From assembly GCA_964409085.1 (NCBI GenBank), contig CAYPCE010000008.1, positions 1 through 47,561 on the forward strand: DNA of 47,561 nt. The letters run 5' to 3'. Below are positions 8,671 to 46,081 of the stretch, one piece after another. The stretch comes from an uncultured Desulfobacteraceae bacterium (GTDB lineage Bacteria > Desulfobacterota > Desulfobacteria > Desulfobacterales > JAABSP01). A program made the position numbers and the translations under genes. Position 1 is the stretch's first letter; every line of letters begins with the position of its first letter. A model generated the notes under the pieces. It searched no databases, was not told the DNA's origin, and saw only the letters and a program-made list of their open reading frames with translations.

Positions 8671-8675
8671 ACCTT

Positions 8676-26898: not shown

Positions 26899-27247
26899 GT
26901 TTTTTCCAGTCCGGAGACGAGGGTTTCAATAAGATCTTTCTCGCTCCAGGGTTTGTAGAGACAGCGATGAAGATTGGCGCGTCGTCGCGTCCTGTCGACG
27001 GCCGTCTCGTCGGCCTGCCCGGTGAGCAGGACGGTGACGATGTTCGGAAACCGCTCGTGAACCTTCGTGAGGAACTCGTCGCCTTTCATGCCCGGCATCA
27101 ACCAGTCCGAGACGATGATCAGTACCTCCATGCCGTCCTCGTGGAGTTCCTCGACCACCTCCATGGCCTCGTCGGCGCTATCGGCGAATTCGTACTGGTA
27201 GCTGTCCTTGAAATGGTTCCGGAGCTGATCCCTGAGGCTCGTCAGTA

Positions 27248-28743
<1,496 letters not shown>

Positions 28744-28747
<4 letters not shown>

Positions 28748-31677
28748 TGAGCGTCTCCAGCGGAGCGGATCAGCTCCATAATCGTCGCATATTCAAAATC
28801 GTCCACCAGGCGGCCGAGGGCGTCGGCGAGTCTTGGATCATGGGCCCGGACGGCGTCGAGGGCCCCGGCGATGCGGTCCATGTTGACCCGGGCCACGGCG
28901 TCCGACAGATCCTGGCGGAGGTCGGGGGGCAGGGCCGCCATGGCTTCCGGCGTAGGGGCGGCGGCGTCGGGTTCCGGCCCGTCCGGGGTCGTTTCCTCGT
29001 CCAGCAGATACCGGAGCCCCAGGTGCTTTTCCATGGCGTCGAAGATTTCCGACTCGCGGAACGGCTTCCGCACGAAATCGTCGCAACCGGCCGACAGGAC
29101 GACGGCCCGCTGTTCGTCGAAGGCGCTGGCCGTCAGGGCGATGACGGCCGTGGCCTGCCCCTTGGCCGTGGCCTTGATCCGCTTCGTGGCCTCGTACCCG
29201 TCCATGACCGGCATCCGCATGTCCATCCAGATGAGGTGGGGATCCCAGGATTCCCAGATCTCCAACGCCTCCGCGCCGTTTTCCGCTGTTTTGACGGCAA
29301 AGCCGATGGGGGACAGCAGCTTTTCCATCAAATGGCGGTTGGTCATCCGGTCGTCGACCACCAGGATCCGGCATTCGGCCTGATCCGGCGCCAGTCCGAC
29401 CACCCGGCGGGCGGGGCCGGTCTCCGGCGCATCGGCGGCGTCGGCGACCACCGCCGCGATCGAAAATGAGAAGACCGCGCCCCGGCCCACTTCGCTCCTG
29501 ACCGTCATGTCGCCGCCCATCATCCGGGCGAATTTCCGGCTGATGGCCAGTCCGAGCCCCGTCCCTTGCTGGGATTTCCGGCCGGTTTCCGTCTGGACAA
29601 AGGCGTCGAAAAGGGTTTCGGTTTCCTCGGCGGTGATGCCGGGCCCCGTGTCCTCGATTTCAAAGAGCAGGACGACGCGTTCGTCCGGCGCCGGCGGCGC
29701 GTCCACCGGCGGTTGAACGCCGACCCGCACCGCGACGCCGCCTTCCTCCGTGAATTTGAGCGCGTTGCTCAGCAGGTTGACGAGGATCTGGCGGAGCCGG
29801 CCCTCGTCGGTCCGGACGAACCGGGGCGCGTCGTCGGCCGTCTCCACCAGAAACCGCAGCCCCTTCTCCTTCGACCGCATTCGGAACATCTCCTGGATGT
29901 CGGCCATGAGGCGCGGCAGCTCGAAGTTCGTTTCGTGGAGGGTGATACGGCCGGCTTCGATCTTGGACAGGTCGAGCACGTCGTTGATGAGCATCAGCAG
30001 ATGCTCGCCGCTTCGCAGGATGACGTCGATGGTCTCCCGGTGCTCGGCGGGGAGATCGGTCCGCTTGGCCAGCAACTGGGAAAAGCCCATGATGGCGTTC
30101 AGCGGCGTGCGCAGTTCATGGCTCATGTTGGCCAGAAAGACGCTTTTGGCCTGGTTGGCGATTTCAGCGGCCCGTTTGGCGTCGGTCAGCTCGGCGGTCC
30201 GTTCCTCGACTTTTCGCTTGAGGGTTTCCGCATGGCCTTCCAGCTCCGCGTTGGCGGCCTGGAGGGCCTCTTCCGCCGCTTTCCGGACCGACACCTCCTC
30301 CCGGAGCTGGTCCGTGCGGCGCTGGATTTTGCCGGCGGCCTCCCGCAGATTCCGGATCATGCCGTCGATGGCGTTGCCCAGGGCGTCGTGGGCCGAACGG
30401 GGTTGGACGTCGATCGTCAGGTCGCCCTGGGAGACGCTCGTCGCGGCGTCGGCCATCTCCATGAGATACCGGGTCATCCGCCCGTAGGCCTCCCGGGTCT
30501 CCAGGAGCCTTTCGACGATCTCGTTGAAGGCGGCGGCGGTCTGGCCCACCTCGTCCTGGAGGTCCACCGACAGCGGGACGGCCGTCACCGTAAAATCGGA
30601 CCGGATGTCTCCCTCGGACAGGCGCGACATCCGGCGGCTCAGGGTCTTCAGGTCCGTGTGGGCCACATCCTGGGATGCGCGCATGACCCGTTGCAGGGGC
30701 CGGGTCATCTTCCGGGACAGCAACAGGCCGATGACAAGGCCCATCGTGATGGCGACCAGGGTGGCCCCCAGCAGCTCGATCCGCGTGTCGTCGGCCAGCT
30801 TCCGGGAAAACCGGTTGTACCGGCCGTAGGCCGCTTCGATGTCGGCCGCGATGGCCGCCGCCGCGCGGCTGATGTCGGATTCGATGACGTCGAGTTCCTC
30901 GGCGAACAGTTTCTGGAGGCGCTTGTAATCGTTCCGCACCGTCCCAAATTCCTTGAAATACGTGTCCACGGCCGCGGCGGCCGCGGCGGCGTTGTCTTTC
31001 ATGGACGGTTCTTCGAGGGCCTTGGCCAGAAAGCCGAGAAACCGCTTGACGACCCAGTATCCTTTGCTGAAAGAGGCCATATGGCGCGGGTCGCCCTCTT
31101 CGAGAAAGCGGGTCGCGTTGAGCCGCATCATGTGGAACCCGTCCCGGGCGTTGCCGTAGGCCAGGAAGACATCCGACGCATTCTGGGAGTTGACGCCCAC
31201 CCGGATGGCCGACAGCTTCTGTTCGATGAGCAGTTCCTGTTCGTTGAGGATGGTGGAAAGCAGCCGCTGCCGCCGCCCGATAAGACCGGTGATTTCCGAG
31301 AACGTCTCCTCGTAGTCGGCGACCGAGGACGCGATGCGGCGGACTTTTTCCTCCCAGGCGGGGTCGTCCGCCCGGCTTTCGGCCCTGGACAACAGGTCTT
31401 CAAGGGCGTCGATTTGGGTGTTGAACGCGTCGATGTCGGACTGAAGGTGGGACCGGACGTACCGGTAGGCGTGAAACCGGGCCGACAGCACGCCGGTGAT
31501 GATTTCCTGGGCGATCTGGCGGCTGACGGCAAGGCGATTCGTCAGTTCATCCATCGTCCGGCCCAGCCGGTCGAGCCGGCTTAACGCCAAAATGCAGACG
31601 GCGGTCATGATCACCAGGGGGACCATGAACCCCAGGATCAGCCGGGCGCTCAGCCGTCGCCGGAAAAATTGGATCAT
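28744..31677 (-). CDS. Periplasmic-sensor hybrid histidine kinase (TM-sensor-HAMP-HisKA-HATPase_c-REC-C-terminal helical domain)
   Basis: TM segment, then a ~280-aa periplasmic region, a second TM segment and HAMP. H-box ([12 protein letters not shown]), ATPase (DTGPGI; GTGLGLAIS) and a receiver ([13 protein letters not shown]). A start at ATG 31677 (MIQFF...) would overlap the solute-binding protein stop as ATGA. Confidence 0.8.
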
Positions 31678-32954
31678 CGCGTCCGGCCGCAGGTTTGGGC
31701 TGGCGGGTACCATTGGGCCAGGCCCGCCTGAAGGCTGTCCGCCGCCCGCCGGGGCGTCTCTTCCCCGTTGAGGACGGCCAGGGCGGCGCGCTGCATGAGG
31801 GAATAGGCGTCCGGCGACCCGTCGCGGATCGCCTCCCAGGCGAACCGGACGTCGGCGCCGCGGTCGGCGTTGAGGCCCAGAAACGCGTTGGCGTGGGCGT
31901 TATCGAGGCGCGGAACGTCGGTGTGCATGGGAAAAAAGCCCGGCAGCTCGTTGCCCATGAGGGCCGCGAATTCGGGCGTCGTCATCCATTCCAGAAATTG
32001 TCTGGCTTCGGCCTTGTGGGTCGAATGGGCGTTGAGCCCCATGCCCGCGTCCAGGTGAAACGTGATGTAGGCGCCGCTTCCCTTGGGCGGCGGCACGGCG
32101 AAAACCGACCATTGGAAGGGCGGATTCTCGGATTCGAAAAAGGGAATGTCCCACGACCCGCCCATCCACATGGCCGCCTTTCCCTGGACGAACAATTGCA
32201 GGCTGTCGGCGTACATGAAAAACGGATGGTTTTTGGGGAAATAGGGCGCCAGATCCTCTAATGCGGCGAAGGCCGCCGTCATCCGGTCGTCGTTGAAGCA
32301 CCGCTCGCCGGACAGATAGGCCTTGCGGCCCTCGCGGCCGCCGATAAAATTGGGGATCAGGTTCATGAGGACGATTTCATTGATCGTCCAGGGATCCCCG
32401 GAGGCATTGGCGAACGGCGTGACGCCGGCCTTTTTGATGCTTTGCGCGGTTTCCAAAAAGGCGCTCCATGACGCGGGCACGTTCAGGCCCAGGCGCTCGA
32501 ATATATCGATGTTATAGTAAACGCCGTGGGACGTGGCGATGAACGGCACCCCGTAGGGGACGCCGTCTTCCGTCGACCAGGGCTCCCGCATGGCGGGGCG
32601 GAACCGTTCTTTCAGCGACGCCATGTCGTTCAAGGGGGCGACATGACCGGCGTCGAAGAGCCGCCGGCCCACGGAATAGGACCGGAGGTAGAAGAGGTCC
32701 GGCCCGCCGCCGTCTTCCAGTTGGGACCGCAGGGCGGCGTCGTATTCCGACGGCGTGGTGGGGTCGAAGGTGATGTCGATGGCCGGGTGCAGGGCGTGGA
32801 ACCGGTCCAGTATCCGGTTCATGCGGGGGGCGTCTTCCGACCGCCAGGAGCCCATGGTGAGGACGACGGTCTCCCGGGCGGCGGCGACGTCAATGTCGCG
32901 AGCCGCGCAGAAGGTCAGATAAACGGCGAAGATCAAGAATGGAAACCGTTTCAT
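31674..32954 (-). CDS. Periplasmic solute-binding protein (ABC-type family 1, sugar-type) with no cognate permease/ATPase genes
   Basis: Signal peptide ([18 protein letters not shown]). Family-1 solute-binding fold indicators throughout (GGGPDLFYL; WMGGSWD). An internal start at ATG 32954 is chosen; the 53-codon upstream extension is Arg/Pro-rich. Confidence 0.75.
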
Positions 32955-33159
32955 TGGCATATTCTCCAGTGGTTTTCGATTGTGCCTGCCCGCGGGGCGT
33001 CCTCGTCGGAAACGCGCCGCCAATGGCGTACGATTTTGCGGCAGTGGCGGACTGCGGGTGGCCCCGGCAAAGGGCATAGTGGGAACTATACCAACTGCCA
33101 CTCTCTTTTTCAATCGCCGAAATTGGATCGATGTTGGGAAAGGGGTTGACGGTTTTGGG

Positions 33160-34284
33160 TCAACCGCGCCAGAACGGCCTCGCCAACTCCGCCGTCTCCT
33201 CCGGCGCGTTGAAGGTGGCCATGTCCCCCAGCATCACCTCGAAGCCCGTATGATCGCTTCGAACCCAGGCAGCGTAATTGGACCGGACCACCATCACCGT
33301 CCGGAGTTCCAGGCCGCTGTCGGGCTTCTCCACCGTCAGCAGTCCCAAATTGTAGCCGTTTCGGAACAGATGCCGGTAGAACCGCTGGGCGTTGAGCACC
33401 CCTTCCGCCAGATCGGCCCAGCGGGTTTCGCCCACGTCCTGGATTGAGAACACGCCGGGCAAAATGCCCCAGATTTCATAGAACCCTTCGGGCGCATAGG
33501 CCGCCATCCATTCCCAGTCGCCCGTCCGCCCGATGTAGCGGGCCCCGTCCCGCCGCTCATGATCCAGGTAGTCGGAGAAGATCCCCCTTCCGACGGCGTT
33601 TCGGTAATCCGCCGAGCGTTTCCGGAGGAATCGGTGGTGGTTCGAGGCGTACCGGTCGGCCTGGACCTGGAGGTGGGGATGGACAAGCGACCCGCCCGCC
33701 GACGGCAGATGATTCTGGGTGATGGCCTGGAAGACGGCTTCCGGGTCGTGGGTCAGCACCTTTTTCAGGTATGCGGCGCAGTTGGTGAAGCAGTCGGCGT
33801 AGCTTTGGGACGACGCCGAGCCGATCTCCACGAAATGGCGATCGTCGAAAAGACTCACCGCCGAATAGGCGCCGTAGGGGAAAAGGTTGGGGAACAGCAG
33901 CGACGCCGACCGCCGCACTCGGTCGCCCCCGGCCAGTTCCGGAATCAGTCTGGGCGTCTGCTGTTCCACCTGGGGCCGGCAGAAGGGGCAGTCGGCGGTG
34001 TTCCCGGCGTCCGGCGGTGGCGCCGGGAGTTCACGGGTCCCCGGCTCCCGTTCGCCGGATCGGCTGTAGGTGATCCGGCAGGTCCGGCCAGTGATGGGGT
34101 GGGTCCGGATTTCGATCCGCCGGTCGGTTCGCTCTCCCGACGGATCGACGAAGGCGGCGGTGATCTCCCGGCAATCGAACCGGAGGACGTCGCTTTTGAT
34201 GGTCGCGTCCAAGAGGTGGGGCCCTTTCCTGGGGTTGGGATGATCGGAAACTCGGGTTTCGCGCATGCTGTTGGTACTGTTCAT
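33160..34284 (-). CDS. Galactose-1-phosphate uridylyltransferase-like HIT-superfamily nucleotidyltransferase
   Basis: Zinc-knuckle motif (CPFC) and a HIT-type HxHxQ motif (HPHLQVQ). Size ~370 aa. Confidence 0.6.
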   Translation of the reverse strand: MNSTNSMRETRVSDHPNPRKGPHLLDATIKSDVLRFDCREITAAFVDPSGERTDRRIEIRTHPITGRTCRITYSRSGEREPGTRELPAPPPDAGNTADCPFCRPQVEQQTPRLIPELAGGDRVRRSASLLFPNLFPYGAYSAVSLFDDRHFVEIGSASSQSYADCFTNCAAYLKKVLTHDPEAVFQAITQNHLPSAGGSLVHPHLQVQADRYASNHHRFLRKRSADYRNAVGRGIFSDYLDHERRDGARYIGRTGDWEWMAAYAPEGFYEIWGILPGVFSIQDVGETRWADLAEGVLNAQRFYRHLFRNGYNLGLLTVEKPDSGLELRTVMVVRSNYAAWVRSDHTGFEVMLGDMATFNAPEETAELARPFWRG

Positions 34285-34327
34285 GACTCATGGTCGGGAC
34301 GATTATGGTTCATATACAAAATGAACG

Positions 34328-35233
34328 CTACACCATCACCCGGTCCCGGCCCGTCAGCTTGGCCTTATAGAGCATCTGATCCGCCAGATCGATGAAGGCT
34401 TTGGGGGATTCTCCCTCCTGGGGCACGACGCAGGCGGCGCCGATGCTGACGGTGACGGTGTCCGCCGCTTCGGAGTATTCGTGTTTGATCCCCAGCCGTT
34501 TCACCGCGGTTCGGATTTCCCTGGCGGTGATCGTCGCGCCGCCGCAGTCCGTCTCCGGCAGCAGGACGGCGAACTCCTCCCCACCGTAGCGGGCGACGAA
34601 ATCCCCCGGCCGTCTCAGGGAATCCTTGAGGGTATTGGCGATTTGCTTCAGGCACTCATCCCCGGCCCCATGGCCGTAGTGGTCGTTGTAGGGTTTAAAG
34701 TAATCGATATCGACCATCAAACAGGAAAACTCTTTGCGGGACCGCATGCAACGTCGCCATTCCTTTGCGAGCAGGGTTTCGAAGGAGTGACGATTGGGGA
34801 TTTCCGTCAGCCCGTCCAGCAACGCGAGTTTTTCCAACAGGTCATATTTCCGTTTGAGGTCCATATGGGTACGCACCCGGGCCGCTACGATGGGGAACTG
34901 AAACGGCTTTGTGATATAGTCGACCGCCCCCAGGGAAAGGCCATGGAGTTCATCCGCCATGTGATCTTTGGCCGTGATGAAGATGACCGGAATGTCTTTC
35001 GTTCGGCTGTCCATCTTCAATTGTCGGCAAACCGCGTACCCATCCATTTCCGGCATCATCACATCCAGGAGAATCAAGTCGGGAAGCGGATTGGAGGCAA
35101 CGATTTCAAGGGCTTTTTCCCCCCGCGTGGCAATCTTGACGACGTACTCATTGCTCAGGCCTTCGGCCAGCACCTGGATATTCAATGGATTGTCATCGAC
35201 AATGAGCACCTGCTGTCTCCGATCTTCAGTCAT
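34328..35233 (-). CDS. Response regulator with a GGDEF output domain (PleD/WspR-like diguanylate cyclase)
   Basis: Receiver (VLIVDDNPLNIQVL...LILLDVMMPEMDG) and GGDEF (YGGEEFAVLL; the RxxD I-site region is present). The start is coupled as ATGA to the upstream kinase stop. Confidence 0.85.
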   Translation of the reverse strand: MTEDRRQQVLIVDDNPLNIQVLAEGLSNEYVVKIATRGEKALEIVASNPLPDLILLDVMMPEMDGYAVCRQLKMDSRTKDIPVIFITAKDHMADELHGLSLGAVDYITKPFQFPIVAARVRTHMDLKRKYDLLEKLALLDGLTEIPNRHSFETLLAKEWRRCMRSRKEFSCLMVDIDYFKPYNDHYGHGAGDECLKQIANTLKDSLRRPGDFVARYGGEEFAVLLPETDCGGATITAREIRTAVKRLGIKHEYSEAADTVTVSIGAACVVPQEGESPKAFIDLADQMLYKAKLTGRDRVMV

Positions 35234-37811
35234 GATCCTTTCCTTCCGGTGTTTCTCCGAGCGCTGCTGTCAGGACCTGCATCATGTCTTTGACAACCGC
35301 CAGGGCCTCGTCGTAGTTGAAACTCGATAGGGACCGCCAAAGCCGGTCCAAGCTCGCCCGTCGATCCGGTGCGAACCGTCCCCACGGTTCAACCAGTCCA
35401 TCGAGGATCGCGACGTCGATGTATTCGTTTTCCCGGATGCGGGACTGAAGGACGCTCAGATCTTGGTGAATCGACCGGGGATCCACGGATTCTCTTTTTT
35501 CCCCGGAAGGCGATGCATCCAACAGGAACGAGCACCGATTCGCCGGCCGGCCGACGGGGCCTTCCCGGGGATCCGCATCATCAGCGGACTCCGAAACCGG
35601 GGGGTGCGCCCATTTGCGAACGACCGAAAAAAGCTGCTCAGGCTCAATGGGCTTGGGGATATAATCATTCATGCCGACCGCCAGGCATTTTTCCCGATCC
35701 CCTGTTACGGCATGGGCTGTGAGGGCAATGATGGGAAGCGACCGGTGGCGGGGGTCGGAACGGATGATGCGCGTGGCTTCCAACCCATCCATTTTGGGCA
35801 TCTGAATGTCCATCAACACCACATCATACCGTTTTTCCCGGATGGCAGCCACCGCTTCTTCCCCGTTGACGGCAAGCGTTACCTGACACCCGGCTTTCCG
35901 CAGATTCTCCCGGATCACCTGCTGATTGATATAATTGTCCTCGGCAACCAATACGTGCCCTTGAAGCGGCGCCACCGCCGGCGGTTCCTCATTATCGGTT
36001 TGGGACGTTTCTTCCAGCTCGCGGCTATGGGTGCTCATGGCCGCGACAACGGACTCATACAGAAGGCTCCGGCCGATGGGTTTGACCAGGAGCCCGTCAA
36101 CGGCCGTCCGTTCAACGTTCTCCAGCACCTCATCCCGGTTGAACGCCGTCATCATGATGATGGCGGGAGATTGGGGAATGCCCGGATGATGCCGCATCCG
36201 CTCGACGGCGTTGAACCCGTTCATGCCGGACACCTTGGCGTCCATCAACACCAGATCGAACGCCGACTCCTGGTCAGCAAGCCGCTCCAGCGCCTTTTCA
36301 CCGGTAGACACGGCCTCCACACTGAACCCGGCAGCGGATAGATGGGCGCACAGAATGTTTCGGGGATCGATGTTGTCGTCCACCACCAGAATCTTTTTTC
36401 CCTGGATTTCCCCGGGAATCGGGTAAGAATCGGTATCACAATCCCCATGGCACTGGAACCGGGCCGTAAAGGAGAAGGTGCTCCCCTGCCCGACCTCGCT
36501 GTCAACCCCGATGTCGCCCCCCATGAGCGCGATCAACTGCTTGGATATGGCCAGCCCCAGCCCCGTGCCGCCGTACCGGCGGGTGATGGAGGAATCGGCC
36601 TGGCTGAAGGAACGGAACAGCTTGTCGATCTGGGCCCGGGTGAGGCCGATGCCGGTGTCCCTCACCGTGAACCGGAGGGTGACGGCATTCCCTTCTGCAG
36701 TGCATTCCCGGTGGACGGTCTCGACCCCGACGACGATTTCGCCGGTTTCAGTGAATTTGACCGCATTGTTGGCCAGATTGGTCAGCACCTGGATCAGGCG
36801 GAGGGCATCGCCGTTGAGGTTGACGGGCACGTCGGCCTCCACAGCAAAAATCAGATCGATCCCCTTCCGGACCGCTTCCTCGCCGATGAGGTTGGACAGA
36901 TGGGCCAGGACGTCCTCCAGGTTGAAGGGGGCCTCCTCCAGGGTGAGGTTGCCCGATTCGATTTTGGAGAAGTCGAGGATATCGTTGATGATCCCCAGCA
37001 GGTTCCGGCTGGCGGACTGGATTTTCCGGACGTAATTGTGTTGCTTCGGCGACATCTCCGTCTGGAGCAGCAGATGCCCCAGGCCGGTGATGGCGTTCAT
37101 GGGGGTGCGGATCTCATGGCTCATGTTGGCCAGGAAATCGCTTTTGGCCTGGCTGGCGGCCTCGGCCTCCCGCTTGGCCACGGTGAGGGCTTTTTCGGTC
37201 TCGACCCAGCCACGGAGTTCCTCGTTGAGCGCCTCCATGTACCGGGCGTTTTGGAGGAGGATCCCCAGAAGCCCACCGGCCGTTTCCAGCAACTGGATCT
37301 CATCCTCCACCAAATCCCTTGTTGCCTCGGAAAAAAGGCACAGGATCCCCAGGGTCGTCTGTCCGGCCATGACCGGGATGGCGACTCCCATGGCGTATCC
37401 CGGATGCCGGGCCAGGGTCTCCAGGGGGGAGTCGGGCATGGCCGGCAGGTCCATCCGGATCACCCGGTGTTCCGGCACGGCGCACCCGGTCCACACCTCC
37501 CCGATCGCCAGCGTCCGCCCCTTTTCCAGGTATTCCAGCGGAAGGTTTCGCCAGGTCTGGAGAGACAACCCGTCGCCCTCCGGCTTCATCAAATAGACGG
37601 CCGCGGCCGGCATGGCCATGCGGTCCAGCAGCAGGGTCTGGGCCCGGGCCAGAATCCCGTCCACATCCGCGGACCGGGCCGTCTTCCGGAACAGGTCGTA
37701 GAGGGTGCGCACATTCTCCCGGCTCCGCTTCAGTGCGGCGTAAAGGTCCTCCGTTTCTTGCCGCGCCCCGCCGCTCTCCGGAAATTTCTCTGGTACGCTC
37801 AGTACCGTCAT
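35226..37811 (-). CDS. GAF-domain hybrid histidine kinase with two receiver domains
   Basis: N-terminal GAF, H-box ([12 protein letters not shown]), ATPase (DTGIGL; GTGLGLAIS), and two receivers ([12 protein letters not shown]; [13 protein letters not shown]). The start is taken at M28 (ATG 37811); the track ORF extends to 37892. Confidence 0.8.
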
Positions 37812-37907
37812 GTTTTTTTCCGCATGCACCTGTCCGTCCCATGGGCCGTCCCGGCCATCCCGATGACAATGGATCGTCGAAAAATTTAACAACCGCGGTG
37901 CTGAAAA

Positions 37908-40900
37908 TCAATCTTTTTTAAGAAGGGATGGATACGAAGAGGGGCGCCCGGAGGACCGGAGCCGGTCCGCCAGCCCCTGGATGTCGGTCAGCGCCATATA
38001 GAGGCAGGGGACCAGAATCAGGATGATGAGCGTGGCGAAGAGCACGCCGAACCCCAGGGAGAGGGCCATGGGGATGAGGAACCGGGCCTGTCGGGAGGTC
38101 TCGAAAATCATGGGGGTGAGGCCGCCGAAAGTGGTCAGGGTGGTGAGCAGGATGGGCCGGAACCGGTGTTTCCCCGCGCCATGGACCGCGTCGTGGGCCG
38201 TCATGCCGGCCCGGCGTTTGCGGTTGGTGAAATCGATGAGGACCAGGGAATCGTTGACCACCACGCCGGACAGGGCCACGATGCCGAACATGGACAGGAT
38301 GCTCAGGCTGTATCCCATGATCAGGTGGCCGATGACCGCCCCCACGATGCCGAAGGGGACGGCGGTCATGATGATGGCCGGCTGGATGTAGCTGTTGAGG
38401 GGAATGGCCAGCATGGCGAAGATCACCGCCAGGGCCGTCAGCAGCCCCCGGAATAAGGCCGAGAGGCTCTCCCGGAGGTCCGCCTGCCGGCCTTCGAAGC
38501 TGAAGGAGAGCCCCGAGTATTTGGCCTCGAGGGCGGGGAGGGTCTCGGCCCGGATGGCCCGCAGGATTTCGCCGGCCCGGGACCGGGGCCGCACGTCGGC
38601 CTCCACCGTCACCACCCGGCGGCCGTCCCGGCGGACGATGTCGGTGTAGGCCCGGCCCCGCTTCAGGTCCACCGCCTCCCGGAGGGGGATCTCCCGGCCG
38701 CCGGGGGTCCGGAGGATCATCTCTTCCAGGCTCTGCTCCGACGCCCGTTCGGACCGGGGCAGACGGACCCGGACCGTCACCTCGTTGCGGCCCCGCTGCT
38801 GCCGCAGGACGTCCACCCCGTAGTAGGCATGGCGCACCTGCCGGGCCACGTCCCGGGACCGCAGCCCCAGGCTCCGGGCCTCGGGCCGGATCTGAAAATC
38901 GATCTGCTGCTTGCCCGGCGAGAACCCGTCGTCGATGTCGGTCACGTTGGGGTAATAGGCCAGGGCCGCGGCCACTTCGGCGCTGGCCTTTTCCAGGACG
39001 TCCATGGACCGGTGGCTCAGCTCCACCGACAGGGCCCCGCCCCGGCCCGGACCGCCGGCGTCCGACTCGAACCGGAGGGATTCCAGGCCGGGCATGTCCC
39101 CCACCCGCTGCCGCCACAGGGCCGTCAGCGCCGACGTGGACATGGGCCGCACATCCGGGGGCGTCAGGTAGATGCGGACCCGGGCTTCGTTGGCGTCGAT
39201 CTGGGCGAAGATCCCCTCCGCCAGGCCCTCTCCGCCATTTTCCGACACCACGGACCGGGCGGCCGCCACCAACCGCTGTTCCACCGCCTCGGTCCGCCCG
39301 AAGGCCGTGCCAAAGGGCAGCCGGGCCGTGACCTGGGCGTAATCGGATTCGATTTTGGGGAACAATTCAAACCCCAGCCGGCCGCTCCGGACATAACCGA
39401 CGGTGAGGATCAGCACCGCCAGGGCCGTTGCGATGGTCGCATACCGCCACCGGAGGCACCGGTCGAGAAAGGGGCCGTAGACCCTGTCCACGAACCGGAG
39501 AAACCCCCGGCTGAACCGCTGCTGCCACCGGGAGAGCCATCCCAGGGGGCCCCGGTCAAAGGAAAACCGCTGATGGGCGATGTGGCCCGGCAGGATGAGG
39601 AGGCTTTCCACGAGGGAAACGGCGAAGACGCTGATCACCACCACCGGGATCTGCTGGAAGATCTTGCCCATGAATCCCGGCACGAAAAACATCGGCATGA
39701 AGGCGACCATGTTGGTCAGCACGCTGAAGGTCACCGGCATGGTGATCTCCCGGGCCCCGACCACCGCGGCCCGGGGCCACGGGGCCCCCTCCTGATGATG
39801 GTGGTAGATGTTTTCGCCCACCACGATGGCGTCGTCCACCACGATGCCCAGGGAGACAATGAAGGCGAACATCGAGACCATGTTGATGGACAGGCCCACC
39901 GGCGACAGGATGAAAAACCCGCCCAGGAAAGAGATGGGAATGCCCAGGCTGACCCAGAAGGCCAGCCGGATCTCCAGAAACAAGGCCAGGAGGATGAAGA
40001 CCAGCCCCAGCCCGAAATACCCGTTTTTCACCAGCAGCCCCAGCCGTTGGCGATAGATGTCGGACCGGTCGCTGCGCAAATCCACCGACAGGCCCGGGGG
40101 CAGGGCCGCGTTGAATTCCGCCGCCACCTCCTTGACGGCGTCGGAGACCGAAATGGGTGTCTGGTCCCCGACCCGGAAGACCTCCAGGAGGACCGCCCGC
40201 AGGCCGTTGTAGGTCGCGATCCGGTCGGTCTCCTCGAACCCGTCATCAATGACGGCGATCTCCTCCAGGAGCACCTGGGCCCCGTCGGGGGCCGTGATGA
40301 TGGGGATCTGCCCGAACTCCCGCCCGTAGTCCCGCCGCTCCCGCATGCGGACGAGCACGTCGCCGCCGGGGGTCTTGATGGCGCCGGCCGGCAGTTCCAC
40401 CGAGGCCCGGCGGATCCGGTCGGCCACCTCCGCCAGGGTGAGACCGTAGGTCCGGAGGGCGTCCTGGGAGATCTCGATGCCGATCTCGTAGTCCCGCACG
40501 CCCTCCAGCCCCACCTGGGTGATCTCCGGGTGCTGGATGAGCCGGTCCCGCAGGCGTTCCGCATATTCCCGGAGCACCCGCTCGCTCTGGTCGCCGTAGA
40601 GGGCCAGGGAGACCACGTACCGCCGCCGGGCCGCCACCGTCACCTGGGGCTCTTCGGCATCGTCGGGAAAGGAGGTGATCCGGTCCACCTCGTTCTGGAT
40701 GTCCGAGGCCAGCTTTTGGATGTTTTCGCCTTCGACCATCTCCACGGTCACCGACGCCCGCCCCTCGCCGGCCACCGAGGTCACCTCCGCCACCCCCTCC
40801 AGCCCCTGGACCGCCTCTTCCACGGCCAGCACCACGCCCCGCTCCACCTCCTGGGGACTGGCGCCCGGATAGGCCACGGATATGGTGACGATGTCCAGAT

Positions 40901-41045
40901 CGAAATCGGGGAAGACCTCCTTCTTGATCCGGGTGGCCAGCATGAACCCGCCGATGAGCAGCACCAGCATCAGCAGGTTGGCGGTCACCGAATGGCCCGC
41001 CATCCAGGCGATGGGGCCGCGGCGGTGGGTTTTGGAGGAACTCAT
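37908..41045 (-). CDS. RND efflux pump inner-membrane permease (CzcA/CusA/AcrB-like, 1045 aa)
   Basis: Twelve-TM RND architecture with two large periplasmic loops and a typical N-terminus (ANLLMLVLLIGGF). The OMF-MFP-RND gene order matches the czcCBA-type layout. Confidence 0.9.
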   Translation of the reverse strand: MSSSKTHRRGPIAWMAGHSVTANLLMLVLLIGGFMLATRIKKEVFPDFDLDIVTISVAYPGASPQEVERGVVLAVEEAVQGLEGVAEVTSVAGEGRASVTVEMVEGENIQKLASDIQNEVDRITSFPDDAEEPQVTVAARRRYVVSLALYGDQSERVLREYAERLRDRLIQHPEITQVGLEGVRDYEIGIEISQDALRTYGLTLAEVADRIRRASVELPAGAIKTPGGDVLVRMRERRDYGREFGQIPIITAPDGAQVLLEEIAVIDDGFEETDRIATYNGLRAVLLEVFRVGDQTPISVSDAVKEVAAEFNAALPPGLSVDLRSDRSDIYRQRLGLLVKNGYFGLGLVFILLALFLEIRLAFWVSLGIPISFLGGFFILSPVGLSINMVSMFAFIVSLGIVVDDAIVVGENIYHHHQEGAPWPRAAVVGAREITMPVTFSVLTNMVAFMPMFFVPGFMGKIFQQIPVVVISVFAVSLVESLLILPGHIAHQRFSFDRGPLGWLSRWQQRFSRGFLRFVDRVYGPFLDRCLRWRYATIATALAVLILTVGYVRSGRLGFELFPKIESDYAQVTARLPFGTAFGRTEAVEQRLVAAARSVVSENGGEGLAEGIFAQIDANEARVRIYLTPPDVRPMSTSALTALWRQRVGDMPGLESLRFESDAGGPGRGGALSVELSHRSMDVLEKASAEVAAALAYYPNVTDIDDGFSPGKQQIDFQIRPEARSLGLRSRDVARQVRHAYYGVDVLRQQRGRNEVTVRVRLPRSERASEQSLEEMILRTPGGREIPLREAVDLKRGRAYTDIVRRDGRRVVTVEADVRPRSRAGEILRAIRAETLPALEAKYSGLSFSFEGRQADLRESLSALFRGLLTALAVIFAMLAIPLNSYIQPAIIMTAVPFGIVGAVIGHLIMGYSLSILSMFGIVALSGVVVNDSLVLIDFTNRKRRAGMTAHDAVHGAGKHRFRPILLTTLTTFGGLTPMIFETSRQARFLIPMALSLGFGVLFATLIILILVPCLYMALTDIQGLADRLRSSGRPSSYPSLLKKD

Positions 41046-41052: not shown

Positions 41053-42306
41053 TCATCCTTCGGCGCCCGTCAGCGGCACATCCGCCAGCGGCCCCGCCGC
41101 ATCGGACACCCGCAGGGGCATCCCCTCAACCGGCGCCGCGATGTCGGAGAGGATCAGCCGGTCGCCGGTTTGCAGGCCGTCCCGCAGCAGGACCGTGTCG
41201 GTGTCCCGCCAGAGGGTCTCCACCTTCCGGATCGAGAGGGTGTCGTCGGGGGCGGCGATCCAGACCCGCGCGCCATCCCGGAGGGCGGACCGGGGAATGC
41301 GGAAGACGTCGGTCAGCTCCCGGCCCTCGATCCCCACCTGGACGTATTCGCCGATGAGCAGGGGCGGCCGGTCGGATGCCGGGTCCGACAGGTCCAGGGG
41401 ATCGTCCACCGACACCAGCAGGCGGGCCATGCGACCTTCCGCTTCCAGATCGCTCAGGAGCTTGATGACGGTCCCGGTCCGCACCTGGGCGTCGGTCCCG
41501 TAGCGGATGGCGACCCCGGATCCTTCCTCCTCTGCGGTTCTCGGAATCCGGAGCCATCGGAGTCGGTCCACCGGCACCGAGACCTGGACCCAGTATTCAT
41601 CGGTTCCCACCAGCTCGGCCAGCCTTTCCTGGACCGCCACCTGGGAGCCCGTTTCCACATGCCGTTCCCGCACCACGGCGTTGAACGGGGCCGTGATCCG
41701 GGTCCGTTCCAGGTTGAGTTCCGCCCCTTTCAGCTCGGCTCTGGCCGCCGCCAGATCGGCCCGGGCCTTTTGCAAATGAGGCTTGCGCAGGGCCAGGTCG
41801 GCGTCGCCGGCGGATTTGTTCCCCTTCAGGAGTTCCCATTCCCGTTTGGCCACTGCTTGATGGCCCAGTTCCAGCTCTAACCGATAGGCCGCATCCGCCA
41901 CTTGGCTCTTTTTGCGGGCCAGGTCGAGTTCGTAATCGGTGGGGTCGATGCGGAGCACCTCCTCGCCGGCTTTGAGGAAGCCGCCGGGGGCGAATTCCGG
42001 GTGCATCCAGATGATTTCGCCCGACACCCGGGACTCCAGGGTCACCTCCCGGGCCGGCACCACCGTCCCCATGGCCCGGATCGAGACCGTCTCGTCCCCC
42101 TTCTGGAGCGGCATGACCTGAACCAGGGAGATCATTTTCCGGGGCGGTTTCCGCTGGGGTTTGGGGCCGCTGCTCTTTAGATAGGCGGAGCCCAGGAGGT
42201 CGATGCAGAGAATGGCGATGGGCAGCGCGATTTTGAGAATAAGGGTCTTTTTATTGGATGTCTTATTGGACCTCTGAGGATCTTCAGAGCGTTTTTCGTC
42301 GTTCAT
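41053..42306 (-). CDS. RND efflux periplasmic adaptor (membrane fusion protein, HlyD family)
   Basis: N-terminal TM anchor, then lipoyl/beta-barrel region motifs (VTLESRVSGEI; coiled-coil region ELDLARKKSQVADAAYRLE). Ends 7 nt before the RND start. Confidence 0.85.
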   Translation of the reverse strand: MNDEKRSEDPQRSNKTSNKKTLILKIALPIAILCIDLLGSAYLKSSGPKPQRKPPRKMISLVQVMPLQKGDETVSIRAMGTVVPAREVTLESRVSGEIIWMHPEFAPGGFLKAGEEVLRIDPTDYELDLARKKSQVADAAYRLELELGHQAVAKREWELLKGNKSAGDADLALRKPHLQKARADLAAARAELKGAELNLERTRITAPFNAVVRERHVETGSQVAVQERLAELVGTDEYWVQVSVPVDRLRWLRIPRTAEEEGSGVAIRYGTDAQVRTGTVIKLLSDLEAEGRMARLLVSVDDPLDLSDPASDRPPLLIGEYVQVGIEGRELTDVFRIPRSALRDGARVWIAAPDDTLSIRKVETLWRDTDTVLLRDGLQTGDRLILSDIAAPVEGMPLRVSDAAGPLADVPLTGAEG

Positions 42307-42357: not shown

Positions 42358-42447
42358 GTGGACGGTGTGGACGAAGTGGACTGAGTGGACCGCCCGCATC
42401 ACCCCGTCCACCTCGTCCATTGTGTCCACACAGTCCACTTCGTCCAC
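42358..42447. repeat. GTGGAC 9-bp-periodic hexamer array in an inverted arrangement
   Basis: Four GTGGAC units at 42358, 42367, 42376 and 42385, then a 15-nt spacer, then five GTCCAC/GTCCAT units at 42406, 42415, 42424, 42433 and 42442. Arms 42367-42390 and 42424-42447 are reverse-complementary at 23 of 24 positions. The array fills the OMF-MFP intergenic region. Confidence 0.9.
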
Positions 42448-42453
42448 CCGATT

Positions 42454-43854
42454 TTACAAAGAAAAGCGGTCATTCACCCACGCCCCGCCCAGGGCCCGGT
42501 ACAGCCGGATGCGGTCCAAAAGCAGCTCGGTCCGCTGCACCACCAGATCCCGCTCCAGGCCCTGGAGCGTCAGCAACTGGGTCAGCACCGGCAGGTAATC
42601 GGACACCCCGTTCCGGTAGCGCTGGTTGGCCCGCTCCAGGCCATTGCTGGCCGCATCCCGCTGGGCCTCCAGGGCATGGATGTGGGCCCGGCGCTTCGTT
42701 TCGCTGACCAGGGCGTCCTCCACTTCCTTGACGGCGGTGTAGACCGTGCGGCGATAATCCCAGAACCGCTCGTCCGCCCTTGCCGCGGCTTCGTCCACCG
42801 CCGCGGCCCGGCGGCCGCCGTCCAGGACCGGCGCCGTGAGCCCCGCCGCCAGATTGAGGAGCCAGTTGTCGAAGATCCGGTCCAGGTCCGCGGCACTGTA
42901 CCGGGCGGTTCCCGTCAGGCGAACCGCCGGCAGCCGGTCGGCTTTGGCCGCCGACACGGCCCAGTCGGCCGATTCCAGCCGCAGGGCCGCGGCCCGGACG
43001 TCCGGCCGCCGCATCAGCAGGTCCGCCGGCAGCCCGGTGGCCGGAATCCCTTTGGGCACGGGCAGGGACCGCCGGGTGATGGTCGCACGCCAAGTGGGCG
43101 GTTTTCCCAGCAGCAGGGCCAGTTCGTGGAGCAGCAGTCTCTCCCGGGCCTCGGCCATGGGAATCCGGGACCGGATCCCCTCGACGGTCTGTCGCTGCTG
43201 GTAGACGTCCAGGGCGGAGACCATCCCCTTTTCAAAGCGGAGTTCCACCAGTTCCAGAAAGGTGCGGTTGGTCTCGAGCTGGGCCTCCAGCAGCCGTTTC
43301 TGGACCCGCTCGGAGATGATCCGGACCCACCGCTCCGACACCGAGGCGGCGAGGGTCATGCCCGCGATCCGCAAGTCCGCCAGGGAGGCCGAGGCGCTGA
43401 GCCGGGCCGCGGTCCGTTCCGACCGGACCCGCCCCCAGAGATCCACTTCGTAGGCGCTGACCAGGCCCATGGCGTAGTCTTCCACCGGTCCGGTGGTCGC
43501 GCCGGCGGCCGTCTCCGTCCGGCGGCGGCCCTGGTTCGTGGACCCTTCCACCGTCAAATCCGGGTAGAGGGCGGCGCCCACCTGGACCGCCAGGGCCCGG
43601 GCCTGCCGGAGCCGGGCCCAGGCCATCTTCAGATCGAAATTCTCGGCCAGGGCTTTGGCCACCAGCAGGTTGAGTTCGGGGTCGTCGAAGGTTCGCCACC
43701 ATTTGTCCGGCCGTTCCTCGCCGGTCGGCGGCATCGAAAACGCAGACGGCACTTCTCCTTCAGGAGCCGGTCTCGGATCCGGAGAAAAGGGCGTGCAGGA
43801 GGAAAACGCCAGCAGGCCGAGGGCGACAATGATGTGGAATCGATTCGGCTTCAT
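42454..43854 (-). CDS. Efflux outer-membrane factor lipoprotein (TolC/NodT/CzcC family)
   Basis: Lipobox (LLAFSSC), then OEP repeats. An internal start at ATG 43854 (MKPNRF...) is chosen; the upstream 43 codons lack signal character. Confidence 0.85.
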   Translation of the reverse strand: MKPNRFHIIVALGLLAFSSCTPFSPDPRPAPEGEVPSAFSMPPTGEERPDKWWRTFDDPELNLLVAKALAENFDLKMAWARLRQARALAVQVGAALYPDLTVEGSTNQGRRRTETAAGATTGPVEDYAMGLVSAYEVDLWGRVRSERTAARLSASASLADLRIAGMTLAASVSERWVRIISERVQKRLLEAQLETNRTFLELVELRFEKGMVSALDVYQQRQTVEGIRSRIPMAEARERLLLHELALLLGKPPTWRATITRRSLPVPKGIPATGLPADLLMRRPDVRAAALRLESADWAVSAAKADRLPAVRLTGTARYSAADLDRIFDNWLLNLAAGLTAPVLDGGRRAAAVDEAAARADERFWDYRRTVYTAVKEVEDALVSETKRRAHIHALEAQRDAASNGLERANQRYRNGVSDYLPVLTQLLTLQGLERDLVVQRTELLLDRIRLYRALGGAWVNDRFSL

Positions 43855-44089
43855 GCTTGTTTTTTTAATGCGTTTTCCCCTACAAAAGCAAGGAGAAAGA
43901 TAATACACGAAACCGGTCGCGCAATCCGCAGAAGGCACTGCGTCGGAACCAAAGCCGGCTGTTATGGCGACTCCGTTTTTCACACCGGGTTTCCCGCCGC
44001 GCGCGGCGACTTGATGTCGGCCGCTTCATACGGCGCCCTACAGGGCAGGCTTTGGGGAAGGATCGGTCATATCGACTTACCCGGTATGC

Positions 44090-44126
44090 AAAAAAGGGGC
44101 TTCCCGTGAAGGAAGGCCCCTTTTTT
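44090..44126 (-). terminator. Rho-independent (bidirectional) terminator hairpin
   Basis: AAAAAA, then GGGGCTTCC-cgtgaa-GGAAGGCCCC, then TTTTTT: a GC-rich 9-10-bp stem flanked by A6 and T6 runs, downstream of the SPFH gene. Confidence 0.65.
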
Positions 44127-44142
44127 AGACCGCTGAAGGCGT

Positions 44143-44176
44143 AAAAAAAGGGGCTGCCGGTCGGGCAGCCCCTTTG
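44143..44176 (-). terminator. Second rho-independent terminator hairpin (minus-strand orientation)
   Basis: AAAAAAA, then GGGGCTGCC-ggtcg-GGCAGCCCC. On the minus strand the hairpin is followed by a U7 run. Confidence 0.6.
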
Positions 44177-44374
44177 TCGCTCTTTATTTCAACCGACCAT
44201 GGCTATCCGCCCGCTCCGGTCCCTTGGGGGCCGAAATCGTTTTTGAGAGAATAATATTGTCTTGAGCGGGTGCTTCTTGGCATCATGGTGATTCCTCCTG
44301 TTTGACTGTGGGCTGCCTATCATTCTGGAATCGAAAAATCAAGCCCTCGGTTTCAGTTTTTTGTTTTACGAAAT

Positions 44375-44416
44375 GTGGACGAAGTGGACGGGGTGGACCC
44401 TGTGGACGGCGTGGAC
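44375..44416. repeat. Second GTGGAC 9-bp-periodic array (five direct units)
   Basis: GTGGAC at 44375, 44384, 44393, 44402 and 44411 with 3-nt spacers. The first two units (GTGGACGAAGTGGAC) are identical to the first array. Confidence 0.9.
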
Positions 44417-44515: not shown

Positions 44516-45622
44516 CTACAGCAGATGGACGATCCGATCCGCCAGGCCCTTTTCCCCCAGGACCACCTGGAGCTGGCTCTTTTCGGCGATCTTCTCCAGG
44601 ACGTCCAGCTCCCGCAGCCGCATCAGGGTCGGGTTGTTCTCCAGGATCTTGGCCGTGTTGGCCTGGCTCCGCATGGACGCGGTCTCCTCCCGTCGGGTGA
44701 TCAGATCCGCGTCGGCCTTCTTCTTGGCCTCGATCACGCGGTTCATCAGGGTCTTCATCTCCCCCGGCAGAATCACGTCCCGGATGCCCAGGGCGATCAC
44801 GTCCAGGCCGAAGGCCGCAGCCCGCTTCCGGACGATGGCCTCCAGCTCGCCGGCCACCTTGTCCTTGTCGGACAGCAGGGCGTCCAGCTCGTGGCCGCCC
44901 ACCACCGCCCGGATGGCCAACTGGGCTTCCCGGTAGACCGCCTGCCGGCTGTCGTCCACGGTTTCGATGGACTTCCGGGGATCGGTCACCCGGCAGGTCG
45001 CCACGGCGTTCATCCGCAGGGTCACCTTGTCGGCGGTCATGATCTCCTGGCCGGAAACGTCCAGGACGGTCTCCCGCATATCGACCGGGTACAGCTTCAC
45101 CTTGCCGACGTTCTTCCAGAACAGGTACTGGCCCGGCCCCAGGGTGTCGACGTAAGCGCCGTCCTTGTAGAGCACGCCCACGAAGCCTTCCGCCACGAAT
45201 GCGGGGGTCAGATGGACGAACGCCCCCTCGGCGGCCTGTATGGCGTTGAAATCCTTGTGATCGAACCGGATCTCCCGGGCGTCCACGATCTCGTGCCGGA
45301 TGTCCCGGACCGTTTTCCAGATCGCGTGCTGCCCCGGACCCAGCACCCGGGCGAACCGGCCGTCCACCCAGACCAGGGCCCGCTCGTGGTCCTTCAGGTC
45401 CAGAACGATCGCCTCGCCCTTCAGAGCGCCGGCCCGGACGATGACGTCCAGATCCTCGTGGACCAGCCAGGGGGACCGCATGGAGACGGTATCCACCCGG
45501 ATCTTGTTGAAGGGATCGAAGAACCAGTACTTTCCGGCATTCAGAATCGTCTTGAATTCCCGATCCCGAAACAACAGGCCCTTTTCGTAGGACCGCACAT
45601 TCACTCTTCCGATGACAAACAT
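44516..45622 (-). CDS. SPFH/band-7 (stomatin/flotillin-like) domain protein with an N-terminal beta-rich extension
   Basis: SPFH core (VDMRETVLDVSGQEIMTADKVTLRMNAVATCRVTD...) followed by a coiled-coil region. The start is taken at M24 (ATG 45622, MFVIGRVNV...). Confidence 0.7.
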   Translation of the reverse strand: MFVIGRVNVRSYEKGLLFRDREFKTILNAGKYWFFDPFNKIRVDTVSMRSPWLVHEDLDVIVRAGALKGEAIVLDLKDHERALVWVDGRFARVLGPGQHAIWKTVRDIRHEIVDAREIRFDHKDFNAIQAAEGAFVHLTPAFVAEGFVGVLYKDGAYVDTLGPGQYLFWKNVGKVKLYPVDMRETVLDVSGQEIMTADKVTLRMNAVATCRVTDPRKSIETVDDSRQAVYREAQLAIRAVVGGHELDALLSDKDKVAGELEAIVRKRAAAFGLDVIALGIRDVILPGEMKTLMNRVIEAKKKADADLITRREETASMRSQANTAKILENNPTLMRLRELDVLEKIAEKSQLQVVLGEKGLADRIVHLL

Positions 45623-46009
45623 GATGCAGGTCTCCTTTCTTCCTGTTTCGGGATGGTGGAAGCCTTTGGGAAGCGGACGCGCCGGAACCATCCGCCCGGA
45701 CGCGGGGCATCGCTTGAGCCGTCGCCGCGCCGCCGGGCGTCTCCAGCCCGGCGGTTCGCCCGCCCGATCCGGTCGGAGCCGGAGTCAGGAAAGCGTTCCA
45801 CCGGGGCAAATCCGCTCCGGCGGCGGGGCAACGTCGGTATCCGCATGCCGCAGGGCGTCCGGCCGCGATGTGTTTCTCCGGGGTCGCCGACCGGCGCCGA
45901 TTCCTCGGCCTCCAATCAGGTCGCCCATCGAAACGCGCCCGGAGCGCCCGCCTCCCGCCGGCTAAGTCAAAAGAACCGTGTCAAACGGTCGAGGGGTTAA
46001 CAGCCCCTT

Positions 46010-46081
46010 GTTTTGGTGCGGGAGTCGAACCCGCTACACCTGTGTCCCTGCACAGTGCTCTACCCATTGAGCTAACCAAAC
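46010..46081 (-). tRNA. tRNA-like gene with a 6-nt anticodon loop and an A/U-rich acceptor stem; possible pseudo-tRNA or sequence error
   Basis: Minus-strand read: GTTTGGT-TA-GCTC-AATGGGTA-GAGC-A-CTGTG-CAGGGA-CACAG-GTGTA-GCGGG-TTCGACT-CCCGC-ACCAAAA-C. Canonical D-arm and T-arm (GGTTCGACTCC). Acceptor stem has 6 pairs with a G1·A72 mismatch. The anticodon loop is one nucleotide short and CCA is not encoded. An AGGGG-ctgttaa-CCCCT hairpin follows. Confidence 0.4.

Follow-up and report, generated by a model that had tools for sequence, protein, structure and literature searches.

Two intergenic arrays beside an RND efflux operon are copies of a dispersed GTGGAC nonamer array

Two GTGGAC arrays around an outer-membrane-factor gene

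We analysed a 47,561-nt stretch, the whole of contig CAYPCE010000008.1, from an uncultured Desulfobacteraceae bacterium (hereafter the window), in which two short intergenic arrays of the hexamer GTGGAC, repeated at a 9-bp period, lie on either side of the outer-membrane factor (OMF) gene of an efflux operon. The genes around the arrays, called with a GC3-based gene caller, are all on the minus strand: the NodT-type OMF gene (42454..43854), which is the first gene of the operon, the gene for the membrane-fusion/periplasmic adaptor protein (MFP; 41053..42306), the RND permease gene (37908..41045) and, on the other side, a slipin (SPFH/Band 7) gene (44516..45691). Each locus is a copy of a non-coding, dispersed repeat, the GTGGAC nonamer array, and neither is a control site of the efflux operon.

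Locus 1 is a convergent pair of arrays. Arm A (42358..42390, plus strand) contains four GTGGAC units separated by the spacers GGT, GAA and TGA; it is followed by a 15-nt loop, cgcccgcatcacccc (42391..42405), and by arm B (42406..42447), whose five units carry GTGGAC on the minus strand. On the plus strand arm B reads GTCCAC-ctc-GTCCAT-tgt-GTCCAC-aca-GTCCAC-ttc-GTCCAC, with one degenerate unit (ATGGAC on the minus strand). In the operon mRNA, transcribed from the minus strand, arm A is the 3’ arm and reads GUCCAC, and the loop reads GGGGTGATGCGGGCG. Locus 2 (44375..44416, plus strand) is a solo array of five GTGGAC units with the spacers GAA, GGG, CCT and GGC. The lead GTGGACGAAGTGGAC is common to the loci, and the solo array is an inverted copy of arm B, the two being 84% alike over 44 nt. 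Tandem Repeats Finder returned period 9 at both loci, and the inverted repeat at locus 1 measures 24 nt, is 96% complementary and has its arms 33 nt apart. When a two-unit pattern was searched with at most one mismatch, 12 matches were found in the window, 11 of them inside the two loci, against 0.30 expected from dinucleotide shuffles, none of which reached 12. An earlier note on this DNA had described four GTGGAC units, 15 nt and five GTCCAC units at 42358-42447, five direct units with the shared lead at 44375-44416, a near-perfect inverted repeat of ~24 bp around 33 nt, a strict 9-bp period and no further array in the 47.5 kb; apart from the one degenerate unit, the sequence bears all of this out, every unit standing at exactly 9 bp.

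Locus 1 is intercistronic: it begins 6 nt past the OMF stop codon (TAA, 42454-42456), and a gap of 51 nt separates its end from the MFP start (42306). An internal promoter in this gap was considered and rejected, as it is not conserved in the orthologous loci L270 and L271 (L-numbers are our labels for comparison loci and contigs). Locus 2 follows the slipin stop (44516) by 99 nt, past the slipin hairpin; from there it is 32 nt to the -35 element of a small gene and 521 nt to the OMF start (43854), both downstream. This gene (44203..44286, minus strand) has 27 conserved codons (MMPRSTRSRQYYSLKNDFGPQGTGAGG), an AGGAGG ribosome-binding site, a promoter consisting of TTGATT (44337-44342) and an extended -10 element TG-n-TAGGCA (44314-44322), and two strong terminators after it (44148-44176 and 44095-44126). 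L275 and L276 keep the open reading frame (ORF) with its C-terminal G-x-G-G, as well as the promoter and terminators; in L274 the promoter, ribosome-binding site and first codons are kept before the contig ends. The unit is an unannotated small protein or RNA gene beside slipin. Because this gene and its two terminators separate locus 2 from the OMF gene, locus 2 lies outside the RND operon; the arrays do flank the OMF gene, as the earlier note had it, but only the first can be counted as part of the operon.

The operon itself had been described as czcCBA-like. This fits its gene order alone: the best matches of the permease are to multidrug-type RND families, which score slightly higher than CusA/CzcA, all scores being below the family cut-offs. 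Exact-protein look-ups of the OMF and RND proteins found no record, and the nearest named relatives in a search with the MFP are Desulfobacterales (Desulfobacteraceae, Desulfonema, Desulfococcaceae). The true start of the slipin gene is probably internal to the ORF as listed; its homologues have 368 aa. Upstream of slipin we also noted a tRNA-like gene (46010-46081, minus strand) that matches the Rfam tRNA family at 41.9 bits and in which ARAGORN finds an irregular anticodon loop (‘gg’); the same sequence stands upstream of slipin in L274 as well. A second ARAGORN call, tRNA-Pro at 11093-11184, falls within a region called coding and has no Rfam support.

Insertion and selection in close relatives

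We next compared the two sites with those of relatives, the closer of which were fetched via exact-protein look-ups. No array was found in 30 metagenomic loci that carry homologous RND operons with MFP homologues 41-62% identical to that of the window. At site 1, L270 and L271 (MFP 87-88% identical) have the paired array at the same place, 5-6 nt past the OMF stop, with both arms orthologous and the loop largely kept (GGGGTGATATGGCG and GGGGGTTGATATGGCG in mRNA sense). Their arms differ from those of the window by whole 9-bp units (6+5 in L270 and 5+5 in L271, against 5+4). The site is without an array in L272 (MFP 75%), where the OMF and MFP genes overlap (ATGA), and in L273 (MFP 71%), where a 49-nt gap separates them. 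At site 2, a five-unit solo array stands at a constant 31-32 nt ahead of the small-gene -35 element in L274 (slipin 94% identical) and L275 (90%); L276 (slipin 77%) has none, though the slipin hairpin, promoter, small ORF and terminators are kept. Since relatives at 71-77% identity lack the arrays and closer ones have them, the alignments show that both arrays were inserted between genes, in recent ancestors of this Desulfobacterales lineage.

The same orthologues reveal which part of the array is held constant. Pairwise comparison of the three orthologues of locus 2 gave 0 changes of 90 in the hexamers and 13 of 36 (36%) in the spacers, with 29 of 60 (48%) in the upstream and 58 of 93 (62%) in the downstream flank; for the window and L275 alone, the contrast between hexamers and spacers has a Fisher P of 0.004. 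At locus 1, 29 of the 30 units in the three orthologues are intact, the exception being the single ATGGAC of the window, while the spacers differ (gaa/tgt/aca/gag, gag/tgg/aca/aca/aca and gaa/ggc/aga/agg). This contrast shows purifying selection on the hexamers and their 9-bp register, and not on spacers or flanks. Uniform decay would be expected of a neutral relic and homogenisation of whole 9-mers of slippage; neither is seen.

The earlier note had proposed a tandem binding-site array for a regulator of the efflux operon. Of this proposal the binding array survives as the best explanation, but the link to the operon does not, since the 30 homologous operons and the relatives at 71-75% identity lack the array and arrays elsewhere stand beside unrelated genes. 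In its strongest form the proposal would posit an operator array of a dedicated transcription factor for the OMF-MFP-RND operon, possibly looping out the OMF gene. The two loci do bracket that gene, the solo array repeats arm B in inverted form, and both arrays are kept in close relatives. Yet, besides the missing arrays in homologous operons and the identical arrays beside unrelated genes, locus 2 is cut off by the small gene and its two terminators, neither locus adjoins the operon promoter, the small-gene unit of L276 is not followed by an RND operon, and only generic two-component genes adjoin the operon as regulators. We regard an operator of this kind as very improbable and largely refuted. 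Hybrid histidine kinases, response regulators, GGDEF/EAL proteins and a methyl-accepting chemotaxis protein are encoded at unusual density around the operon (24907-37892 and 408-2378), and no DNA-binding output domain was seen among them.

Arrays in other genomes and in phages

An exact three-unit scan of one genome per species returned at least 119 loci, which fall into two classes. In the coding class the spacers are, among the matches listed, identical, and the arrays form Gly/Pro-rich, Val-Asp or collagen-like GGT-CCA-CNN repeats in actinomycetes and giant viruses. In the non-coding class the spacers differ from unit to unit, and this class occupies at least about 50 unrelated intergenic loci in about ten phyla. 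Its carriers are Lentisphaeria, Kiritimatiellia, Verrucomicrobiota, Brocadiaceae and other Planctomycetota, Parachlamydiaceae, Hydrogenedentota, Sumerlaeota, Zixibacteria, Chlorobi, Desulfobacterota, Acidobacteriota, Nitrospirota and one metagenome-assembled genome (MAG) of the Caulobacteraceae. Occurrence at so many unrelated loci refutes the reading of the array as a locus-specific site. Likewise, of the suggestion that it is a genome-specific miniature repeat, the dispersed repeat holds but the restriction to one genome does not, given about ten phyla and phages. A (V-H-x)n, (V-D-x)n or collagen-like peptide was rejected for the non-coding class, in which stop codons are not avoided and orientation is mixed; a collagen-like G-P-x frame would moreover require C as the first spacer base, where it is found in 10% only. 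An ECF or sigma-54 promoter was set aside by inference only, as the spacing does not fit.

The non-coding element has a simple architecture: an invariant hexamer and a free, C-poor 3-nt spacer, in arms of 3-6 units with sharp ends that occur either solo or as a convergent pair of the form (GTGGACNNN)n - short loop - (NNNGTCCAC)n. Among the matches listed, arms of four units are most frequent (31), followed by three (20), five (12) and six (3), with one arm each of seven and twelve; beyond the ends, the unit that would follow in phase bears no relation to the array. C makes up 10%, 15% and 7% of spacer positions 1-3 on the GTGGAC strand in genomes of about 60% G+C, and the asymmetry between strands reaches the middle position (69 G vs 31 C). 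The commonest spacers are GGG, GAA, TTT, TTG, GGA and TGA.

About three quarters of the sites are solo arms. Full pairs are always convergent, (GTGGAC)n - 5 to 77 nt - (GTCCAC)n, at 13 independent sites vs 0 divergent ones, and partial partners follow the same trend (7 vs 2 sites, 13 vs 2 hexamers). The spacers of paired arms are 56% complementary vs 45% when shuffled (P = 0.009 in a wider-register test; a narrower first test gave P = 0.06). Two sites from one Acidobacteriota MAG (L102 4722-4860 and L083 2730-2830) have their outermost units 7-8 bp apart in both arms (GTGGAC-gc-GTGGAC-t-GTGGAC..., mirrored), and this symmetric irregularity suggests that the arms there arose by inverted duplication. 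A Sumerlaeia MAG (L009 4794-5419) carries a ~90-bp block tandemly repeated at least 5 times, in which GTCCAC units at 9 bp are followed by GTGGAC at irregular 11-14 bp, a divergent arrangement unlike all simple pairs.

The intergenic settings are convergent (9), tandem (16) or divergent (5), the arrays often lying 1-30 nt past a stop codon, and array orientation relative to flanking genes and transcription is mixed. Recognition of duplex DNA is favoured by this mixture of orientations and settings. Nor is there a shared neighbour: all-against-all BLASTP of 1,647 ORFs within +/-3.5 kb of about 55 sites recovered only a generic NtrC-like cluster (5 loci) as recurrent, and the verified neighbours are housekeeping genes unrelated to one another (an NtrC-like activator, DegP, HypF, a low-molecular-weight phosphatase, MsrAB, an alcohol dehydrogenase and a TPR protein). 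Zinc-dependent alcohol dehydrogenase genes beside the arrays of L096 and L110 were examined as a common neighbour and dismissed as coincidence, being 31% identical.

Some genomes hold several copies. A Lentisphaeria MAG (JBMNFR01) has 4 arrays, pairs of loci come from Brocadiaceae, Acidobacteriota and Sumerlaeota MAGs, and the copies in L051 and L076 have common flanks and spacers. These copies would suit a selfish mobile element, in which the pair is a miniature transposon with transposase-binding hexamers at both ends and the solo arms are one-ended remnants; its presence in the window would then be owed to insertion and to no function for the host. Such an element would also account for the gain of both sites in the same lineage, absent from the 71-77% relatives, and for the 84% likeness between the solo array and arm B; hexamers that consistently point inward are a trait of transposon ends, and in eukaryotic Ac elements sub-terminal hexamer arrays bind the transposase. 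A selfish element should, however, decay uniformly, and at the orthologous sites the hexamers have changed at 0 of 90 against 36-62% in spacers and flanks. Furthermore, no transposase or RAYT-like gene recurs within +/-3.5 kb of about 55 array sites, no target-site duplication is recognisable in flanks that are too diverged, spacers and loops differ between copies unlike those of the near-identical repetitive extragenic palindromes (REPs) and miniature inverted-repeat transposable elements (MITEs), and one hexamer recurs in about ten phyla where REP and MITE families are species-specific. We therefore consider a selfish origin of this kind improbable.

The dispersed pattern is unlike that of a classical REP or MITE. 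With REPs, their bacterial interspersed mosaic elements (BIMEs) and MITEs the arrays have in common that they are dispersed and intergenic, often sit in operons right past stop codons, form inverted pairs that are hairpins in mRNA, and are gained or lost between relatives. In contrast, REPs are imperfect palindromes of 20-40 nt, near-identical within a species, species-specific and RAYT-linked, none of which was found at the GTGGAC loci compared, and GTGGAC copies, unlike REP/BIME copies, have only the hexamers in common, with different spacers and loops. Of what marks a MITE, inverted arms and, in the 71-77% relatives, empty sites are seen at the GTGGAC loci; a target-site duplication is not recognisable there, and neutral decay is not seen.

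In phages most matches are coding repeats. The non-coding phage arrays lie in late structural operons, where some occupy the gap between the genes for tail tube and tape measure, some follow a baseplate gene and others precede the genes for the gpW-like adaptor and the portal. A lambda-like family (L146, L201, L168, L216, L154 and L277) has four invariant hexamers, although its portal proteins are only 42% identical, its G+C ranges from 51 to 67% and its flanks are unalignable. This pattern shows that the phage arrays, too, are under purifying selection; as the spacers are kept as well, this alignment alone cannot separate duplex DNA from RNA. Searches for cultured relatives of the array-bearing phages gave no DNA match and portal identities of at most 31%, and the viral contigs contain neither convergent nor divergent array pairs, hence no independent test of polarity.

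As a control, the composition-matched hexamers GAGGTC, GGTGCA and TGCGAG were searched in the viral collection, where they form 23, 99 and 18 four-unit arrays, respectively. None of these 140 arrays has three different spacers, vs 7 of 31 for GTGGAC. The combination of a constant hexamer and free spacers is therefore particular to GTGGAC and no general by-product of 9-bp tandem duplication. The same comparison bears on the idea of a minisatellite generated by slippage at 9 bp, or of plain chance. Unit number does vary by whole units between orthologues, and 9-bp tandem repeats are common, though mostly as coding Gly/Pro-rich or collagen-like GGT-CCA-CNN repeats. But slippage would copy whole 9-mers, and the spacers differ within each array; the control hexamers never give variable spacers; the chance expectation is 0.3 per window; and the arrays are non-coding, with stop codons not avoided in their spacers. 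Slippage or chance is refuted as a sufficient explanation, and of all the alternatives it is the one to which we give least credence.

A different question is whether the arrays are clusters of DnaA boxes that titrate or recruit DnaA. GTCCAC is the core (positions 3-8) of the high-GC DnaA box TTGTCCACA, and contiguous 9-bp boxes of this sequence do exist in four phage contigs (L121, L162, L198 and L234). There, tandem GTGGACAAT gives perfect TTGTCCACA boxes head to tail at exactly 9 bp in 4-6 copies, with inverted partners in L162 and L198; these are probably phage replication-origin or DnaA-recruiting clusters. Like tandem DnaA boxes and MraZ boxes, the GTGGAC arrays are direct repeats with GTGG or GTCCAC cores in 3-5 units, with one protein per unit in the known cases. 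MraZ repeats differ in their 10-bp period and their place upstream of mraZ. DnaA boxes need the flanking TT and A, which the GTGGAC arrays lack, so that the consensus TT(A/G)TCCACA is not matched: the required spacer AAT occurs in 0 of 213 spacers, T1, T2 and A9 are not preferred, and T, the spacer base needed for A9, is present in only 21% of units. There is also no dnaA or oriC context, and genomes have multiple sites. A DnaA role is accordingly highly unlikely.

Hairpins, possible protein docking and what the arrays may mean

At locus 1 the pair is predicted to form a strong hairpin (-56.1 kcal/mol, z = -5.1), and so are the orthologous pairs in L270 (-64 kcal/mol, z = -5.0) and L271 (-78 kcal/mol, z = -9.3); locus 2 is unstructured on both strands (z = +0.4 and +0.6). 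An attenuator hairpin had been among the suggestions of the earlier note. The strong fold at locus 1 stands, but the attenuator does not: the hairpin is followed by CCAUACUGAAUCAU and not by a U-tract, a terminator scan finds none there, and locus 2 is unstructured yet has equally conserved hexamers. The locus 1 hairpin may be an intercistronic stabiliser or processing site. As the hexamers of the unstructured solo array are equally conserved, the hairpin is not the primary selected feature.

These folds raise the possibility of an element that acts at the level of RNA or single strands, the pair being selected as a long imperfect hairpin in the transcript (a stabiliser, processing site or partial terminator) and the solo arms as unstructured G- or C-rich tracts for an RNA-binding factor, e.g. 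a Rho-loading tract or ribosome standby site. Consistent with this, hairpins are strong in all three orthologues, the spacers are C-poor on one strand, hence a lone arm cannot fold, the polarity of pairs is universally convergent, the complementarity of their spacers is weak but significant, and arrays often lie just past stop codons, inside operons and phage late operons. On the other hand, the solo arms that make up about three quarters of sites are unable to form a hairpin and have equally conserved hexamers; the hexamer is fixed across phyla, where a hairpin would tolerate compensatory changes, none of which are seen; orientation to the upstream gene is mixed, giving GUGGAC or GUCCAC in mRNA; arrays are in some cases placed ahead of promoters or flanked by divergent genes; and, besides the missing U-tract at locus 1, no Rfam family matches the arrays of the window or of 18 other loci. 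On balance an RNA-level element seems to us unlikely, though it deserves more weight than a selfish one.

Full-text literature searches for GTGGAC or GTCCAC repeats returned nothing relevant, and the non-coding arrays are apparently an undescribed kind of dispersed short intergenic repeat array. The nearest in kind are heptamer arrays. TAACTGA direct repeats are intergenic in Beggiatoaceae, Cyanobacteria and Bacteroidetes, with no evident transfer mechanism; they are perfect head-to-tail repeats, almost all direct, and in the BOGUAY genome (Beggiatoaceae) most of them stand shortly before a start codon (PMC4679880). Like these and the cyanobacterial short tandemly repeated repetitive (STRR) heptamers, GTGGAC arrays are intergenic, common to unrelated phyla and beside functionally unrelated genes. 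Unlike them, they vary in spacer within every array, keep a 9-bp register, pair convergently and often lie just past stop codons. In Lentisphaeria and Sumerlaeota, GTGGAC arrays directly abut heptamer arrays of the TAACTGA/STRR kind. The MAGs of these groups show long arrays of several short units abutting GTGGAC arrays (CTCGCCC/CTCGCCG ~40 times, GGGTGCG, GAATTAT, CATTCAG and a 13-mer) at L007 7505-7700, L051 about 1800-2000 and 4000-4180, L032, L036 and L105 4860-4990, and the intergenic regions concerned consist almost wholly of several short-tandem-repeat families. The window has a short intergenic tandem array of a different kind, a perfect octamer array (CCCTCTGT x 4.5, 8672-8707) between a stop codon TAA (~8667) and the ATG (8732) of an acetyl-CoA-synthetase-like (ATP-grasp/CoA-ligase) gene.

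In mechanism, the closest parallels are arrays that bind small dimeric proteins. The omega and ParG arrays, with 7- and 8-bp repeats, contain direct and inverted units. At the pCXC100 centromere a ribbon-helix-helix (RHH) ParB fills nine contiguous 9-bp repeats cooperatively, one dimer per repeat, with a protection period of 9.0 bp (PMC3074162). The GTGGAC arrays resemble all these sites in being contiguous short repeats of non-palindromic units, and they have the trait of RHH-type tandem operators, namely contiguous 9-bp repeats in direct and inverted arms. The pCXC100, omega and ParG sites differ in that they are single-copy, lie beside the genes for the binder and its ATPase and have weakly conserved units (AGNTGGAAA), whereas the GTGGAC hexamer is invariant, its spacer free and its arrays dispersed over chromosomes and phages with no partner gene adjacent. 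Pfam and NCBIfam annotation of the flanking genes revealed no RHH or ParA protein. A second parallel is RptR, a small dimeric repressor that reads a 6-bp core within three 9-bp direct repeats, each dimer being stabilised by its neighbours (PMC12255303). Its operator is like the GTGGAC arrays in having a 6-bp core in 9-bp direct repeats; it is unlike them in that the core is a true palindrome, TAGCTA, in RptR’s own promoter upstream of restriction-modification/defence genes, with neither inverted arms nor dispersal.

Our preferred reading, which we put forward tentatively and at slightly less than an even chance, is that the arrays are dispersed, inserted and then selected sites that dock a sequence-specific protein, one unit per 9 bp. 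The selected property would be cooperative binding, with one protomer or dimer per 9-bp unit and the quasi-palindromic GT..AC hexamer as the contact site; four to five units would then hold a short protein filament on DNA, and paired arms two facing filaments. Because it is not encoded beside the arrays, the putative binder would act in trans, and it may do so on many sites, in an architectural or global-regulatory capacity. At locus 1 the pair would in addition fold in the OMF-MFP mRNA and could uncouple the expression or stability of the OMF cistron from that of the MFP-RND cistrons.

Several points weigh against protein docking. A binder of duplex DNA does not obviously need spacers that are asymmetric between strands, which hints at a single-stranded role, in RNA or ssDNA. 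The universal convergence and the complementarity of paired spacers imply that a hairpin role, or an origin by inverted duplication, contributes. No candidate binder was found among the genes flanking the arrays, and the counts for the source organism cover the 47.5 kb of the window only. A broader claim is that the arrays are cis-sites of an uncharacterised trans-acting system, probably spread horizontally among about ten phyla and phages, in which a protein or ribonucleoprotein would read the hexamer in a 9-nt register, in blocks of 4-5 units, with paired blocks facing. This we hold with more reserve, as a possibility somewhat short of the docking itself.

If this broader claim is correct, the arrays would represent a dispersed architectural or regulatory element of a new class, REP/BIME-like in scope but defined by a protein-binding code and not by a palindrome. 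REP, STRR and TAACTGA arrays are common but mostly unexplained, and the GTGGAC family offers an unusually clean handle on such repeats: a six-base code, a 9-bp register, set block sizes, a fixed pairing polarity and selection on the code alone. For annotation, the arrays should not be read as regulators of whichever operon adjoins them; they can also serve as a marker for recent intergenic insertions. The carriers include many poorly studied phyla as well as phage late operons, and which factor reads the repeats is directly testable with a simple synthetic bait such as (GTGGACGAA)5.

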